A DNA stretch of 32,000 nt from Candidatus Jordarchaeales archaeon. GTDB taxonomy: Archaea; Asgardarchaeota; Jordiarchaeia; Jordiarchaeales; Freyrarchaeaceae. The notes below the pieces were generated by a model. The model ran no database searches. It worked only from the letters and a program-made list of their open reading frames with translations, and was not told where the DNA came from. Shown in pieces: positions 9,796 to 16,460 of this stretch. Location of the stretch: the NCBI GenBank assembly GCA_038889235.1, contig JAWAHN010000001.1, positions 30,001-62,000 of the forward strand, read 5' to 3'. The stretch's first letter is position 1, and each line of letters opens with the position of its first letter. The translations under genes were made by a program, and so were the position numbers.

Positions 9796-10104
9796 GTCTT
9801 CCGCAGCACTCTTACAATACGCAAAGGCTGCATCTTTTAGACTTCAGGAGAGCCTTCGCACTCCTAACCTAGAGAGGAGCACTAAATTTTTCGTCCAACT
9901 TTCCCAGAGGGAATGAACACCCGTCCTTTAAGTCCCTAAATCGCGGGCATCCTTTAAACGTTTCTAGCAACTTTACGAATCCTACCGCACAACAGAAGAA
10001 CCCATACAAGTAAAGTAAAACCTGCCACTTTTTTCACAGAAAGCAGGCAAATAGAAAGATGCTGCGAAAAGCCGAACGCCCCCCGGGGATCTGGCAGAAA
10101 GAGT

Positions 10105-10572
10105 TCAACTCGAATCTACCAGCTTCACACCGTTCTCGCAAAAGGAGCCTTTTCTCGCTTCAACTATCTTTTCGGCGAGCTTTTCAACGCAACTCAAAAG
10201 TGTGTCTCTATCGCCAGCCATTACAGCTCTCACTATGATTAACGCGTCGAAATTAGGGAGGTACCGCTCAACAAGCTCTTCTACAATGCAGATGATCAAA
10301 GCCTTGGCAGAGCTTTCAAATCCGCCGAGCGCCCTGACCATCTTTTCGAATGACCCTCTAGGGTTTTCCAAGAAACTTTTCATAACTTCAATAGAGTCCT
10401 CTGAGCCGAACTCGTCCATTATCATGTCACATAACGTCTTAATGCAAATGGAGCCGTAAGCCAGTTTAGAATTCTTCAAGCATTCGTCAATCTCCATTAA
10501 GATTATTTTAGAGATATTTAACAAGTCCATAATGTCAGTCACCACATTCGTGCAAAATAAACACGACATCAA
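10105..10572 (-). CDS. Small helical hypothetical protein resembling the DUF3227/NitrOD-type archaeal output domain
   Basis: FLENPRGSFEKMVRALGGFESSAKALIICIVEEL resembles the recalled 'P..f...L..ifG..a..ie..i...l' pattern; AT-rich promoter region upstream. Confidence 0.55.
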   Translation of the reverse strand: MMSCLFCTNVVTDIMDLLNISKIILMEIDECLKNSKLAYGSICIKTLCDMIMDEFGSEDSIEVMKSFLENPRGSFEKMVRALGGFESSAKALIICIVEELVERYLPNFDALIIVRAVMAGDRDTLLSCVEKLAEKIVEARKGSFCENGVKLVDSS

Positions 10573-10818
10573 GCATTAATAAATATTTCCATTAGAATAG
10601 TTTAAAATATAATCAAATACATTGACGTGGCAGATAATTTATTTATTTTTTATTGTTTTTGGATAAAAATGTGAAAAATTTTGAAATAGTTGTGATTTTT
10701 GGTGATTTTCTGTATTATGATTCCTTTCTCGTCTTGGGTGTTGTGACCCGCGGGGGAAAACTTTTTTCTTTTGGTGTACGGCTTCTGTTGTCATGGTTAC
10801 CGCTGGCGGGGGCGGTAG

Positions 10819-11241
10819 TTGTTGGCGGTCATCTCCAAGCGAGTTAGGTTTTCGACGAAGGGAGAGGTGGACATGATCGATATTACAGGTGTTGTTCAGA
10901 AGGCTGTCGAGGAGTCGGGGCTGAAAAAGGGTATTGTGACGGTTTTTGTTCCAGGGTCAACGGGGGCGGTAACCACTATAGAGTACGAGCCCGGGCTTGT
11001 CAAGGATTTCTCGAGGGTGCTTGAGAGGGTGGCTCCTAGAAACGAGGAGTATGAGCATCATTTGAGGTGGCACGACTGGAACGGGCACAGCCATTGCAGG
11101 GCTGCTCTGCTAGGCCCAAGTCTCACCGTCCCGTTTGACGGGGGTGTTCTCCAGCTTGGAACCTGGCAGCAGATAGTTTTCGTGGAGCTCGATGTTAGGC
11201 CGAGGGAAAGAGAGTTAATACTCCAGATAATCGGTGAGTAG
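10819..11241 (+). CDS. yjbQ: YjbQ family protein (secondary thiamine-phosphate synthase, UPF0047)
   Basis: VFVPGSTGAVTTIEYEPG, NGHSHCRAALLG and LGTWQQIVFVELD motifs. Confidence 0.93.
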   Translation: MLAVISKRVRFSTKGEVDMIDITGVVQKAVEESGLKKGIVTVFVPGSTGAVTTIEYEPGLVKDFSRVLERVAPRNEEYEHHLRWHDWNGHSHCRAALLGPSLTVPFDGGVLQLGTWQQIVFVELDVRPRERELILQIIGE

Positions 11242-11259
11242 TTTCTCTCCGCTTAAGGG

Positions 11260-12135
11260 ATGCTGGCCATGAAGGTTGGCAGGAAGGCGTTCAAGCGGTT
11301 GTTAGATGAACTGGAATTCGATAGCCTCCTCCAATTGATGACTAGTTGGGGGATTAGCGTTGGAGGAGTTGAGGATAGGGAGGAGGTGTTTAGGAGGGTT
11401 TGGGAGGCGGGGGTAACGCCCGTCAGGCTTGAGGACCTACTGGCGGTTCTCGACCTGAAGCAAAGCTTAGCGTCCACTTTTTGGCGTGTTTATACTTTTC
11501 AGCGCTCTGGCGGCCTTATTAGAGCTGGAACTGTGGAGCGTAGACTTAACAGGGAGCTAAGCAAGAGACTTAATGGAGCCAGCGGTACCGGCTACTTTAG
11601 GGCTCTGAACATGAGCGGGTTCGTCTACGTCTTTTACAGGTTTGAGAGGGATGAGCTTGTTGGAGAAGCGGAGGGGGTTAGGATAGGGCGCAGAGTTTGC
11701 CACATGAAGTCCATCGTGGGTGACAGATTGCTTCTGGTTGAAGACGCCGGGTGGCTTGAGTGGGTTTTAGACCTGTTTTCGATTGCCCTAAGAGCCGAGC
11801 TTAACGTAGTGACATTCCCCCCTTTCCTGCTGAGGGAGATCGCTGAGCGGAGCATTGTCAAGCGTGCAGTCCTTTTCCTCGACGGACAGATAACAGGCGC
11901 CCCGGGGCTAAGCAGGGTGACCGTGGAAGGGGATAACGTCGTTAAGGGAGCCGAGAAGCTTAGATCACGTCAGGAACTAAACTTTTGGTCCGCCGGCCCC
12001 CTTCTCGAGGTAGAAACCGACGAGTTCGCGTTTTCAGCGGACGGGCGGGTGAAGGTAAAAGAGGGGGGAATAGCTGGAGTAAAGAAGATGCTGCTGTTCA
12101 TAAAGGATCTGCTAGAATCCCTAGAGAAAACGTAG
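11260..12135 (+). CDS. Hypothetical protein; candidate archaeal homologue of kinetochore CENP-N/Chl4
   Basis: The ORF is solid (18 bp after yjbQ; alternative ATG 11269). The family call rests on a by-eye pattern match to recalled CENP-N/Chl4 sequences (see finding). Confidence 0.55.
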   Translation: MLAMKVGRKAFKRLLDELEFDSLLQLMTSWGISVGGVEDREEVFRRVWEAGVTPVRLEDLLAVLDLKQSLASTFWRVYTFQRSGGLIRAGTVERRLNRELSKRLNGASGTGYFRALNMSGFVYVFYRFERDELVGEAEGVRIGRRVCHMKSIVGDRLLLVEDAGWLEWVLDLFSIALRAELNVVTFPPFLLREIAERSIVKRAVLFLDGQITGAPGLSRVTVEGDNVVKGAEKLRSRQELNFWSAGPLLEVETDEFAFSADGRVKVKEGGIAGVKKMLLFIKDLLESLEKT

Positions 12136-12366: not shown

Positions 12367-13086
12367 TTGGAGCGAGTGAAAACTGGAGTTGAAGGGCTTG
12401 ACAAAATTCTTGGTGGAGGAGTTCCCAAGGGCTCGAGCGTGTTGGTGACTGGTGGGACGGGTACTGGTAAGACGACGCTTGTTATGCAGTTCCTGATGGA
12501 AGGGTTGCGGAACGGTGAAAGCTGCCTCCTGATTACGTGCGAGGAGGAGCCGCGCAGGCTGTACATAGAGATGAAGCAGCTCGGGTGGGATTTCGAAAAG
12601 TTTGAGAAAGAGGGGAAGCTTGTGGTGATTGACGCCGCAAGCACTAAAGTCGGTATGCCGACCACCACTATATATAAAGAGTTACAGCCGAAAAGCACTA
12701 GCATAGACATGGACCTAGTAGTCCTCATAGGTAAAGCGATAAAGGAATGCAATGTTAAGAGGGTTGCCCTTGACTCTGTGCCAGCGCTAGCCCTAAGGGT
12801 TAGAAAAGCAGAGACGTTGAGGGAGTTGTTGTTCAGGGTGTACTCTATGTTGGAGCGCTTTGATTGCACGAGCTTTGTTGTGACGGAGATACCGGAGGGG
12901 AAGAGCGCCCTTAGCAGGTATGGTGTGGAGGAGTTCCTCTCGAGTGGAGTTATAAAGCTCTCCCTTCAGAAGGAGGGGGAAAAGTGGGTTAGGAAGATGC
13001 AAGTGGTGAAGATGAGGGGGACGAAGCACGACCTTAACGAGCACACGTTTGAAATAGCGGAGGGAGGGATAAGGCTTAAGGATTAA
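12367..13086 (+). CDS. Single-domain KaiC-like (RecA superfamily) ATPase
   Basis: RVKTGVEGLDKILGGG, Walker A GGTGTGKT, CEEE acidic pair, Walker B VALDS, SRYGVEEFLSSGVIKL, and the finger motif MQVVKMRGT; TTG start after GGAGG. Confidence 0.92.
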   Translation: MERVKTGVEGLDKILGGGVPKGSSVLVTGGTGTGKTTLVMQFLMEGLRNGESCLLITCEEEPRRLYIEMKQLGWDFEKFEKEGKLVVIDAASTKVGMPTTTIYKELQPKSTSIDMDLVVLIGKAIKECNVKRVALDSVPALALRVRKAETLRELLFRVYSMLERFDCTSFVVTEIPEGKSALSRYGVEEFLSSGVIKLSLQKEGEKWVRKMQVVKMRGTKHDLNEHTFEIAEGGIRLKD

Positions 13087-13113: not shown

Positions 13114-14514
13114 ATGGGTGAAATATCTATGGAGAAACAGATGGGCGCCGGGGAGGAGTTGAAGGGTGGAGTTGTTAAGAGCGGGATTGAAGGCTTAGAT
13201 GAAATCCTCGACGGCGGATTTGACCCGGGAAACGTTACTCTCCTAGCAGGCCCTCCCGGCTCCGGTAAGAGCATAATGTCAGCTCAGTTTATCTACAATG
13301 GCGTAGTGATGTATGGTGAAACTGGTATCTACGTGAACTTCAGCGAGAGCAAAAGCGACTTCATGAGGAACATGGCGAGGCTTGGAATGGATTTTAGCCG
13401 CCTTGAGGAGGAAGGGCGCTTCAAGTTCATTGACGCTTACAACATTTTCAGTAAGAGGAGCCTGGACCTTATAGTATCTCACATATTAGACGAGATTACA
13501 ACATTTAGGATTAGAAGAATGGTGTTAGACCCAATAAACGCCATTACGGCACTAATGGATAAGGAGGAGCTTAGAGCATTCGTAATCACCACAATTATGG
13601 GTATCTGTAAGGTTAACAATGTGACATGCATGCTCGTGAGCAATCAGCACCAAGGAATGGTGGATGAGAAGCTCGCCGAGCTGGCTTTCATGTGTGACGT
13701 TGTAATCAGGCTTGAAACCAAAATGGTAGGGGACGTCGTTGAAAGGTTTCTCGTTGTGGAGAAGGCTAGAGGGAAGAGGAACATTGTTTCGAGGACGGAG
13801 TACCTTATAACTGATAGCGGTATAGTAGTTTTCACGCTTCCATCGAGGCCTCTCGCAAAAGAGAGGTGGTTGGAGGAGAGTGTCGGCATAGGACACGTGG
13901 AGTTTGACGAGAAAGTGTTAATGGGAGGCGTTAAGAGGGGGACTGTGACGCTTATCTCAGGGCCGGGAGGGGTGGGAAAAAGTGTTTTGCTGGTTGAGTT
14001 CGCCGCTTCGGGAGTTCTCAGAGGGGAAAGAGTGCTCTATGTCACGTTCAGGGATTTGAAAGGAGTGGAGAAGGCTTTCAGTGGTAGGGGTTATAATATT
14101 GAAGAGCTTAAGAGGACTGGGTTAAAGCTCATCGAGTTCCAACCATTTAAGGTTACTCCTGGAATGATGTTGGTAACGTTGAAAAAGGTGTTGGACGACT
14201 TCCAGCCAAGTAGGGTGGTGGTGGAGGAAGTAGCGTCATTAAGATGGCTTCCTAGAGAAGAGTACTGCCGACTGATAAACAAAATGGTATCCCTCTTTAA
14301 GAGCTACAATGTAACCGCGATGATAAGTTCCGGAATTGATACGAACGTTATGGAGGCTGATGAATTCATGGCAGCCGACAACGTGATCCATATTTGGAGG
14401 GAGAGGAAAGGGGGAGAAGCCGTTAGAAAGATTTCCGTTATCAAAATGAAGGGTGTTCATGACAGGAGAATAAGGGAGCTTGTTTACGGGGAAGGAGAGA
14501 TTAAGGTTTTCTAG
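13114..14514 (+). CDS. Two-domain KaiC-like ATPase
   Basis: Two RecA/KaiC repeats with Walker A GPPGSGKS and GPGGVGKS, and finger motifs VEKARG and VIKMKG; alternative start ATG 13129. Confidence 0.92.
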   Translation: MGEISMEKQMGAGEELKGGVVKSGIEGLDEILDGGFDPGNVTLLAGPPGSGKSIMSAQFIYNGVVMYGETGIYVNFSESKSDFMRNMARLGMDFSRLEEEGRFKFIDAYNIFSKRSLDLIVSHILDEITTFRIRRMVLDPINAITALMDKEELRAFVITTIMGICKVNNVTCMLVSNQHQGMVDEKLAELAFMCDVVIRLETKMVGDVVERFLVVEKARGKRNIVSRTEYLITDSGIVVFTLPSRPLAKERWLEESVGIGHVEFDEKVLMGGVKRGTVTLISGPGGVGKSVLLVEFAASGVLRGERVLYVTFRDLKGVEKAFSGRGYNIEELKRTGLKLIEFQPFKVTPGMMLVTLKKVLDDFQPSRVVVEEVASLRWLPREEYCRLINKMVSLFKSYNVTAMISSGIDTNVMEADEFMAADNVIHIWRERKGGEAVRKISVIKMKGVHDRRIRELVYGEGEIKVF

Positions 14515-14542: not shown

Positions 14543-15187
14543 GTGAACTTGTTTAGAGGAGTGGTTGTTGTGAGCTTTGACTACAAGCTTGGACCTATCG
14601 TGGAGGCAACGTTCCCCGAAGGGGTTGTTCCGAAGGAGTCCTTATGGGACCTAGCTGTGGATGTTTGGATGAGCATTTTTTCAGGGGAGATAACTGAGGA
14701 TTCCAACCAGAAAATTTACGGTAACCTTGGAAGACTCGCATTTATATCTTTCTGCGAGAACAGCGAGAACTACGCCGTGATCGCTTTGTTCGATGAAAGT
14801 GACGGGGGGACAGTTTGGCAGTTCAAAGACACGTTAAAAGAAGTTATAGGTAGAGCAGTTGAAAACCTAAGGAAGGGAACTAGAAGTACGGACGTTGCAC
14901 GAACCGTTTACGAAGAGATAAACGGGATAATCGCCGGGCCAAGAAAATTGCCGATCGAAGTGTACAATGACGTTACGAGGATGTACGACGCGTTAGGGAA
15001 CATTCTGAAACTAGTGAACGAGGTCAAGGAGAGTGATGTTAAAAATAAGTTGATCACTGCTGTGGCGGAGTTGTCTGATAGAATAGCGGACCTCGTGCTC
15101 AACCTGGCTTCACTCTGGGGGGACAGAGAAATTATAAATTCACTAATCCGCAAAGCGGAGGGGGCGGAGTTGAAAGGGGTGAGATAA
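14543..15187 (+). CDS. uDENN/longin-like domain protein (paralog A)
   Basis: N-terminal VVVVSFDYKLGPIVEATFP matches the uDENN hallmark 'hhhh.FD...GP.h...aP'; helical C-terminal tail; GTG start after AGGAGG. Confidence 0.65.
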   Translation: MNLFRGVVVVSFDYKLGPIVEATFPEGVVPKESLWDLAVDVWMSIFSGEITEDSNQKIYGNLGRLAFISFCENSENYAVIALFDESDGGTVWQFKDTLKEVIGRAVENLRKGTRSTDVARTVYEEINGIIAGPRKLPIEVYNDVTRMYDALGNILKLVNEVKESDVKNKLITAVAELSDRIADLVLNLASLWGDREIINSLIRKAEGAELKGVR

Positions 15188-15189
15188 AA

Positions 15190-15705
15190 TTGCGTCCGTC
15201 GGAAATCCAGTGTTTTCAGAGGAGGATAGTGTTGAGGGACGGGTCAAGGGTTTTGATAAGGGCGCTGACTCCTGCTGATGCGGCAAAGCTGCTGAGATTC
15301 TACAGCTTGCTGTCGACCGAGACAAATTACTTGCGCTTCCTTAATTACAGGCCTTCTTCGAGCTGGGTACTGGAGGGGCTTGCAAACGTCAACTTCGAGG
15401 ATAATGTAGCCCTTGGAGCTTTCACCGAGGATGGGGAGCTGATTGGCGACGCAAGGTTCTCGCTTGACAGGAAAACCGGGAGAGCTGAAATAGGGATAGT
15501 AGTTGCAGACGAGTGGCAAGGGAAGGGGTTGGGGCTGAACATGATCCAGACGCTTGGCTACATAGCTATGAGGATGGGTGTTAGGACGCTTTACGCAACA
15601 GTATCCCCAGTCAACTACTTCGTAGCCGCAGCCCTTAGAAGCGCAGGGTTTAGAAGGGTTAAAGCCGAAATATTGGAAGAAAGAATTTTTGAGGCAGACC
15701 TCTGA
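15190..15705 (+). CDS. GNAT acetyltransferase, similar to the GNAT domain of Pat-type protein lysine acetyltransferases
   Basis: LRDGSRVLIR, ETNYLRF, AEIGIVVADEWQGKGLG (acetyl-CoA-binding motif A) and LRSAGF. Confidence 0.9.
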   Translation: MRPSEIQCFQRRIVLRDGSRVLIRALTPADAAKLLRFYSLLSTETNYLRFLNYRPSSSWVLEGLANVNFEDNVALGAFTEDGELIGDARFSLDRKTGRAEIGIVVADEWQGKGLGLNMIQTLGYIAMRMGVRTLYATVSPVNYFVAAALRSAGFRRVKAEILEERIFEADL

Positions 15706-15818
15706 AAAAGCTTCAGTTCGCAAGCATCACGGCAGTTTTCAAAAAAAATCGCAATATCTGAGAGAAAAAATAAAAATTTTAAGTGAATGACCAACTATAT
15801 TTTGTCGGAGGCGTTCGT

Positions 15819-16460
15819 TTGAGTTCGACTGTCGAGATAAAATTTCAGGTTCAATGCCGTGGAGTTATGCTCATAAGGTTTGATTACATTGTAGGACCAT
15901 TGGTGGAGAAAATCTTTCCTCACGGCATCATACCCGAGGAATTGTTGTGGAATCTCGCCCTCGATGTTTGGATGAGCATGGGAACTAAAAGCATGGAGGA
16001 AGGGTATAGTACCACAGTGTTTCTTAAGGACATTAACATGTTCGCCTGCCTGGTTTCAGGGGGGAGTGGCGGAGGGACACCGTACGTCATGGCAGCCCTA
16101 TTTAACCCTGAGGGTATGGGCAGCTTCTGGAGTGTTAGAGATAAAGTTGCTGGAGCCCTACTTGAACACATTAAAAGGATTAGGAGAGGAGAGGACGTTG
16201 AAAAAGTAGTTACAGAGGCGTACGACGCGGTGGTTAAAACCACGTTGGGCCCTGTGAACGTGGGAATTTCCAGCACCTTTCTACATGACACGGCGAAGTT
16301 CGTCGCAAAACTGGTGTTCCACGTTCAAAGCACAGGCAAGTGGGACAACGAACTAAGAGAGATGCTGAGAAGTTACGTGGAGCGCCTCGCAGACGAAGCA
16401 AGCAAGACAAGTAACAACGAAGTACTCAGAGAGCTTGTCAAATTGAAACCTTTCTTGTAG
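15819..16460 (+). CDS. uDENN/longin-like domain protein (paralog B)
   Basis: RGVMLIRFDYIVGPLVEKIFP; 24/40 identical to the start of paralog A. TTG 15819 lies 7 nt after GGAGG (frame opens at 15783). Confidence 0.65.
   Translation: MSSTVEIKFQVQCRGVMLIRFDYIVGPLVEKIFPHGIIPEELLWNLALDVWMSMGTKSMEEGYSTTVFLKDINMFACLVSGGSGGGTPYVMAALFNPEGMGSFWSVRDKVAGALLEHIKRIRRGEDVEKVVTEAYDAVVKTTLGPVNVGISSTFLHDTAKFVAKLVFHVQSTGKWDNELREMLRSYVERLADEASKTSNNEVLRELVKLKPFL

Follow-up and report, generated by a model that had tools for sequence, protein, structure and literature searches.

The window, the 32,000-nucleotide stretch of DNA that was analysed, carries an open reading frame (ORF) between a YjbQ/UPF0047 gene and two KaiC-like (RecA-superfamily) ATPase genes (Table 1). 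The original prediction described it as a 291-aa ORF without any standard prokaryotic motif. The ORF was confirmed, and Pfam and NCBIfam scans of the 291-aa protein gave no match even at E ≤ 1. The same scans of 20 family members returned nothing significant, and PDB sequences contained no match to the 291-aa protein. In most homologues the start residue is the equivalent of M4 (ATG 11269). Together with the Shine-Dalgarno-like AAGGG before it, this indicates that ATG 11269 is the probable start and that the mature protein probably has 288 aa. Compared with same-genus orthologues (~72% identical), the gene had a pN/pS of 0.23–0.26, indicating purifying selection. In one sediment metatranscriptome, contigs covered only the flanking YjbQ and KaiC genes. 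Three hot-spring metatranscriptomes, in which the presence of the host organism was not established, gave 0 reads.

The ORF and the YjbQ/UPF0047 gene are probably co-transcribed, and their pairing was kept only within Jordarchaeia. The gene order in Jordarchaeia is yjbQ, the target gene, two KaiC-like ATPases, a longin-like gene, a GNAT gene, and a second longin-like gene. The Atlas model of the first longin-like paralogue was nearest to the longin-domain GTPase regulators folliculin, C9orf72, NPRL2, and Avl9, and to Asgard GTPase fusions. Relatives also have a Roadblock/LC7 gene close by. At positions 10001–11000 of the window, the GC content dipped to 0.43, versus about 0.52–0.56 in the flanks. 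Within the dip is a 155-aa ORF (10105–10572, minus strand) that matched no family.

Table 1. Features of the target gene and its surroundings (positions in the window)
Feature	Position	Strand	Remarks
YjbQ/UPF0047 gene	10819–11241	+	Upstream; ends 18 nt before the ORF
Shine-Dalgarno-like AAGGG	11255–11259	+	9 nt 5′ of ATG 11269; read directly from the sequence
ORF of the Asgard protein with predicted LNHD fold	11260–12135	+	291 aa counting the first three residues; range includes the stop
Predicted N-terminal four-helix bundle	11281–11475	+	Residues 8–72; whole-chain alignments overlay the CENP-N/Chl4 pyrin domain
Predicted LNHD/TBP-like α/β domain	11479–11787	+	Residues 74–176; aligns to CENP-L, CENP-N, Iml3, RdgC, and more weakly TBP
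Predicted β-hairpin	11656–11697	+	Residues 133–146; packs on the partner's N-terminal bundle in the predicted dimer
Predicted C-terminal α/β domain	11800–12129	+	Residues 181–290; equivalent of the RdgC base domain and the CENP-L/N dimerization domain
Most conserved family block	11887–12000	+	Residues 210–247; invariant G213, G216, G224, R237, G246; contains strand 219–224
KaiC-like (RecA-superfamily) ATPase, one-domain	12367–13086	+	Directly downstream of the target
KaiC-like (RecA-superfamily) ATPase, two-domain	13114–14514	+	Follows the one-domain copy
Longin-like paralogue 1	14543–15187	+	No Pfam family
GNAT acetyltransferase gene	15190–15705		Between the longin-like paralogues
Longin-like paralogue 2	15783–16460	+	No Pfam family; 29% identical to paralogue 1 (E 5e-26)

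Predicted fold and sequence comparison

The protein was modeled using AlphaFold2 from a 20-sequence alignment (pLDDT 85, pTM 0.83). The predicted model has the N-terminal helical bundle followed by a TBP-like (LN-homology domain, LNHD) sheet that the original prediction had proposed, and it ends in a C-terminal domain. This is the CENP-N/Chl4 architecture, a pyrin-like helical domain followed by the LNHD and a C-terminal dimerization domain. The model likewise contains the CENP-L/Iml3 fold (LNHD plus C-terminal dimerization domain) and the center, tip, and base domains of the RdgC fold. As an isolated domain, residues 8–72 were nearest to SAP-type and death-fold bundles.

Foldseek analysis of the PDB returned 27 matches at E ≤ 1e-3, and all of them were CENP-L, CENP-N, Chl4, Iml3, or RdgC (3e-8 to 1.6e-4). 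The next match was lambda RexA (4e-3), followed by noise. In AFDB Swiss-Prot, Fta1 and CENP-L matched at ~1e-9, CENP-N at ~3e-8 (query 8–242, with the N-terminal bundle covered), and RdgC at ~1e-5 (query 73–290). The predicted model thus matched CENP-N/Chl4 structures with high significance, and no unrelated family fitted better. As all solved-structure searches agreed, the assignment of the modeled protein to the RdgC/CENP-L/CENP-N ("LN-homology domain") clamp-fold superfamily is robust. These models give no equally robust decision between "CENP-L/N-like" and "RdgC-like". The Jordarchaeial model favored CENP-L by ~3 Z units, and the Hodarchaeales model gave a tie. The protein had been called a CENP-N homologue; this held at the level of the fold and was too narrow for CENP-N specifically, since CENP-L and RdgC fitted about equally well.

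With CENP-N, no sequence-only method gave a significant match for the protein. PF05238 (CENP-N/Chl4) matched neither the protein at E ≤ 1 nor anything in its own genome at E ≤ 10, and its best scores among relatives were 11–14 bits, with a gathering score of 25 bits. The PF13092 (CENP-L/Iml3) profile did not match the protein. The PF04381 (RdgC) profile did not reach its 25-bit threshold, and its best in-gene matches (12.6–13.1 bits) occurred only in the Freyarchaeum lineage. Over the host genome, the three models gave nothing significant. PDB profile searches with 20- and 51-sequence family alignments gave no significant match to CENP-N, CENP-L, or RdgC.

The Pfam CENP-N, RdgC, and CENP-L models were also screened over 80 genomes carrying the family. 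Two of the seven weak CENP-N matches lay in frame within the family gene (genus g65; profile positions 333/366–395 of 410), as did two of the 11 weak RdgC matches (Freyarchaeum genus; profile positions 122–157) and none of the four weak CENP-L matches. The same CENP-N profile region was faintly matched in P0013. Each in-gene pair came from close kin, so that the pairs count as two independent observations, CENP-N in one lineage and RdgC in another. By our own estimate, a random match lands in the family gene with a chance of ~1e-4 per match. These faint matches support membership of the superfamily without choosing between CENP-N and RdgC. The top match of the CENP-N screen (E 0.005) was a 191-aa ORF unrelated to the family (G128:C2:7213-7449, minus strand), which matched profile positions 21–77, the pyrin-domain region.

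Several short blocks had been proposed by eye. The reference segments quoted for them were genuine where they could be tested (human CENP-N 8–29 and yeast Chl4 20–40). The first block paired residues 10–31 with human CENP-N 8–29. This position was the top-scoring one for the human 22-mer across the whole protein (BLOSUM62 score 24, 4 identities), and it is consistent with the structural alignment of model residues 3–289 to CENP-N 1–213. Its placement stood, and its sequence support was marginal. The score was reached by 23 of 2000 shuffles, and the same segment scored 27 between human CENP-N and yeast Chl4. Another block was the C-terminal 'RVTVEGDNV..' motif, the most conserved element of the Asgard family. 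The faint Pfam CENP-N matches in relatives did fall there, but none was significant.

The full-length architecture, including the N-terminal region, was common among uncharacterized prokaryotic proteins in the AlphaFold cluster library and the ESM Atlas. In the AFDB clusters, prokaryotic proteins of 366–713 aa matched at 5e-11 to 1e-8, and the CENP-L cluster representative matched at 3e-7. In the ESM Atlas, a bacterial 371-aa cluster had a TM of 0.64, versus 0.60 for the CENP-L cluster and 0.56 for the CENP-N cluster. A protein-language-model search ranked bacterial clusters first (0.90), then CENP-N (0.79) and CENP-L (0.76). Some of these same-fold relatives were helicase fusions or were annotated as WYL, GAPS4b_N, or DUF4868.

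Inheritance and the predicted homodimer

Exhaustive searching of 1.84 billion cluster representatives with phmmer yielded only 13 representatives, nearly all of ~290 aa. Lineages were named solely after the sources given for these proteins, namely Freyarchaeum, Promethearchaeota (in NCBI taxonomy, the phylum of the Loki lineage), Helarchaeota, Odinarchaeia, and Hodarchaeales. All organism-named representatives were Asgard archaea, and the search detected no sequence relationship to prokaryotic LNHD families. Close homologues were named Jordarchaeales or "Freyarchaeota", and a word-indexed profile search found no further members. A fused long form (an 845-aa ORF in G181 with a weak family match) was rejected as chance (hhalign probability 0.1%).

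Of 400 Asgard genomes searched with a profile, 109 carried the family, each with one match. The family was near-universal in some taxonomic families (29/31, 21/22, 11/12, 11/12, 6/6, and 4/4) and not or hardly detected in others (0/19, 0/14, and 1/135). The host genome, which is 95% complete, carries a single copy without a paralogue. A maximum-likelihood tree built from 48 members required 22 label changes, the minimum possible, versus 37.6 with shuffled labels. With the exception of one long branch, each host family sampled more than once was monophyletic or was broken up by nothing but named contigs from its own lineage. The family behaves as a vertically inherited core gene, unlike a mobile gene.

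Homodimer prediction gave a score of 0.67, whereas the best control scored 0.33. The score passes a mark attained by 20 of 30 proteins whose solved structures are pairs of one chain and by 1 of 23 with single-chain structures. As RdgC and CENP-LN complexes have already been solved, part of this result may come from resemblance to them. Contacts from three runs agreed by at least 91%, with a partner pLDDT of at least 84. The predicted interface is two-fold symmetric. Strand 219–224 runs antiparallel with its own copy, with expected errors of 1.1–1.7 Å for the self-pairing contacts 221–221, 220–222, and 219–223, and hairpin 133–146 lies on the N-terminal bundle of the partner. Interface residues 212–242 had a mean conservation of 2.65 bits versus 1.42 at non-interface positions, and the invariant G213, G216, G224, and R237 belong to the predicted interface. 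Median values for the 48 members were 9.3 for pI and +8.5 for net charge, and K150, R192, R202, and R237 were kept basic across them. This charge fits nucleic-acid binding, though RdgC itself is net acidic.

The most likely reading, with a probability of about 60%, is that the protein acts on Asgard chromatin as a homodimeric, RdgC/CENP-LN-type DNA clamp; the dimer is predicted, and we infer the DNA binding. Two copies would join through the most conserved β-strand (219–224), antiparallel across a two-fold axis. The hairpin 133–146 would reach over to the partner, and both kinds of contact would be those that close the RdgC ring. By analogy with the RdgC ring and the CENP-LN vault, the basic homodimer could straddle or encircle double-stranded DNA. 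Its role would be that of a chromatin- or nucleoid-associated clamp and not of an enzyme. Counting against this reading, the assignment comes from predicted structures, and the putative ring-closing hairpin is low in both monomer pLDDT (53–61) and conservation (1.04 bits).

Tromer et al. 2019 (PMC6601020) reported that CENP-L and CENP-N lack significant sequence similarity to any other protein and resemble others just by their generic TBP-like fold. From a distant relationship to RdgC, a duplicated DNA-binding homodimer was inferred as the origin of CENP-LN (Pesenti et al. 2022). RdgC is thus an already published prokaryotic relative of CENP-L/N, which qualifies the original statement that no prokaryotic orthologue was established. 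The properties of the Asgard family, single-copy, vertically inherited, with the whole CENP-N-like architecture and predicted self-pairing, fit those expected of the missing intermediate. CENP-N is an obligate heterodimer with its paralogue CENP-L; all 109 positive genomes had one copy and no paralogue, and a homodimer was predicted. A single copy with a predicted homodimer resembles a pre-duplication L/N singleton more than a CENP-N orthologue.

It is possible, with the odds against it, that the family represents the pre-duplication ancestor of CENP-L and CENP-N, already reading histone-bound DNA in Asgard chromatin. Such an ancestor would agree with the published expectation of a homodimeric singleton and with the CENP-N-like domain order, but bacterial relatives are equally close in structure. 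The earlier idea of an Asgard precursor of an inner-kinetochore protein is plausible at most, because many bacterial proteins share the whole architecture with equal or better scores. It can be proposed only tentatively that the family is a surviving homodimeric DNA-clamp singleton that was duplicated in eukaryogenesis into CENP-L and CENP-N, and that its repeated pairing with a single orthologous Rab-like GTPase may prefigure the place of CENP-M beside the CENP-LN dimerization domains. The host genome has one archaeal histone gene, ~770 kb from the target, and CENP-M and CENP-C models gave nothing above cut-off in it. Within CCAN, CENP-N binds centromeric DNA or the CENP-A nucleosome, and CENP-A is not known from archaea.

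If the ancestor reading is true, part of the DNA-gripping vault of the inner kinetochore is older than eukaryotes. Even if the family is merely another branch of prokaryotic RdgC-like clamps, it is an uncatalogued conserved Asgard family that is probably chromatin-associated. According to a 2025 review, essentially nothing is known of Asgard chromosome segregation (PMC12188315), and the family offers a concrete, testable protein for cultured Asgard archaea. Searches of the freely accessible literature gave no report of the family or of an Asgard link to CENP-L/N.

Gene neighbours and alternative roles

A Rab-like small GTPase gene with intact G motifs (Pfam Ras 3e-44) was the only neighbour conserved across classes. 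Of the 48 loci, 17 have it directly upstream of the target, and these lie on either side of the deepest split of the tree. In Hodarchaeales-type loci it is co-directional with a ~30 bp gap, an operon-like arrangement, and in the Loki-lineage, the Helarchaeota-type, and family f27 it is divergent. With the Loki-lineage neighbour as query, the gene-adjacent GTPase was the best of 70 in G127 and the joint best of 40 in G067, so the adjacent GTPases look orthologous. These data, and the two longin-fold, GTPase-regulator-like paralogues 2.4–3.6 kb downstream in the window, would suit an effector, scaffold, or regulator of the GTPase, whose TBP-like platform would bind protein, with DNA playing no part. 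However, most families had no such linkage, including the host genome, where the best GTPase match was ~0.4 Mb away from the target gene, as it was in G016. Asgard genomes have 8–70 such GTPases, and eukaryote-like gene clusters are common in them. Moreover, the family is strongly basic, and all solved same-fold structures clear of background are DNA-associated proteins. We regard a GTPase-partner role as unlikely. The link itself is real but partial, and it could mean regulation, a non-DNA role, or merely an old gene cluster. CENP-M is a pseudo-GTPase sitting by the CENP-LN dimerization domains (Pesenti 2022), and the parallel with the neighbouring GTPase is suggestive and nothing more.

Other features were seen around the GTPase. 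In L067 (G303:C1, about 20.6–21.3 kb; family f27), the adjacent GTPase is broken into ORFs of 94 and 83 aa, and an upstream GTPase copy in G397 (G397:C4:16163-16708) has an in-frame TAG; both may be pseudogenes or sequencing errors. A PDCD5-like dsDNA-binding gene (PF01984) recurs in seven loci, ~1.1 kb upstream of the target, in lineages whose neighbouring GTPase is divergent. L037 additionally carries an E2F/DP winged-helix gene there, making a small eukaryote-like gene cluster (cluster coordinates: L037, 3144–3512 and 4743–5201; L066, 2502–2870). In Hodarchaeales-type genomes, a subtilase of ~830–845 aa follows ~30 bp 3′ of the target, giving three co-directional genes, GTPase, target, and protease (L039, 7064–9601, with Peptidase_S8 on record; L054–L056, L076, L080, and L081).

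The KaiC-like ATPases would suit another possible role, that of an RdgC-like recombination modulator. As a DNA ring, the protein would restrain RecA-superfamily ATPases, either RadA or the neighbouring KaiC-like proteins. The fold and the predicted dimer geometry are RdgC-like, and in all Jordarchaeia examined the two KaiC-like ATPases follow the target directly, one relative having an extra copy. One Hodarchaeales contig has a KaiC-like ATPase upstream of the target. Against this, the KaiC linkage is confined to those lineages and missing from every other family in the sample, archaea have many KaiC-like ATPases, and the protein showed no sequence-level RdgC membership. This role seems improbable to us.

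A defence or mobile-element DNA sensor of the RexA/3HP/GAPS4b/DUF4868 type, which the nearest bacterial structural and embedding neighbours (GAPS4b_N, DUF4868, helicase fusions, and more distantly lambda RexA) could suggest, is very improbable because the family behaves as a core gene: it is single-copy and congruent with host taxonomy, its neighbours elsewhere are housekeeping genes such as those for pyruvate:ferredoxin oxidoreductase subunits, no integrase, nuclease, or helicase lies beside it in any of the 48 loci, and phage RdgC-like proteins in the viral library matched weakly (TM 0.3–0.4).

Comparison with known systems

The homodimeric clamp that we favor was compared with the named systems. 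The Asgard protein shares its predicted domain order with CENP-N/Chl4/Mis15 (PF05238; PDB 6EQT, 7PKN_N, and 6QLD_N). It has no detectable sequence similarity to CENP-L/Iml3/Fta1 (PF13092; PDB 7XHN_L, 7PKN_L, and 4IT3), and compared with CENP-L, it has an ordered N-terminal bundle in the model. CENP-L pairs with its paralogue CENP-N in a 16-subunit complex, whereas the Asgard gene is single-copy and its product is predicted to self-pair. CENP-L and CENP-N join via their C-terminal domains, and their two-fold pseudosymmetry matches that of DNA (Pesenti 2022).

RdgC is a bacterial recombination-associated DNA ring, described in Proteobacteria (PF04381; PDB 2OWL and 2OWY). It differs from the Asgard protein in lacking the N-terminal bundle and in its far longer tip domain, and it is net acidic where the Asgard family is basic. 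Its Pfam model misses the Asgard protein. The RdgC ring takes up dsDNA in a positively charged hole at its center. The RdgC ring is closed by interface B, in which β9 lies antiparallel with its own copy, and by interface A, formed by crossing tip hairpins (Ha et al. 2007). In the predicted Asgard dimer, strand 219–224 mirrors interface B, and the predicted contact of hairpin 133–146 would be the counterpart of interface A.

Among uncharacterized prokaryotic LNHD-fold families, the AFDB clusters A0A023X7L7 and A0A7X7G1Z2 (WYL domain) resemble the Asgard protein in full-length architecture from query residues 1–8 onward, as do ESM Atlas bacterial clusters of 297–371 aa. We grouped with these families the RdgC-like proteins known in Halobacteria and Bacillus (Schwab 2024). 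Uncharacterized families, including GAPS4b_N clusters, a DUF4868 protein, and helicase fusions, scored equal to or better than CENP-L/N. Unlike the Asgard family, many prokaryotic LNHD proteins are longer, fused, or combined with defence-associated domains.
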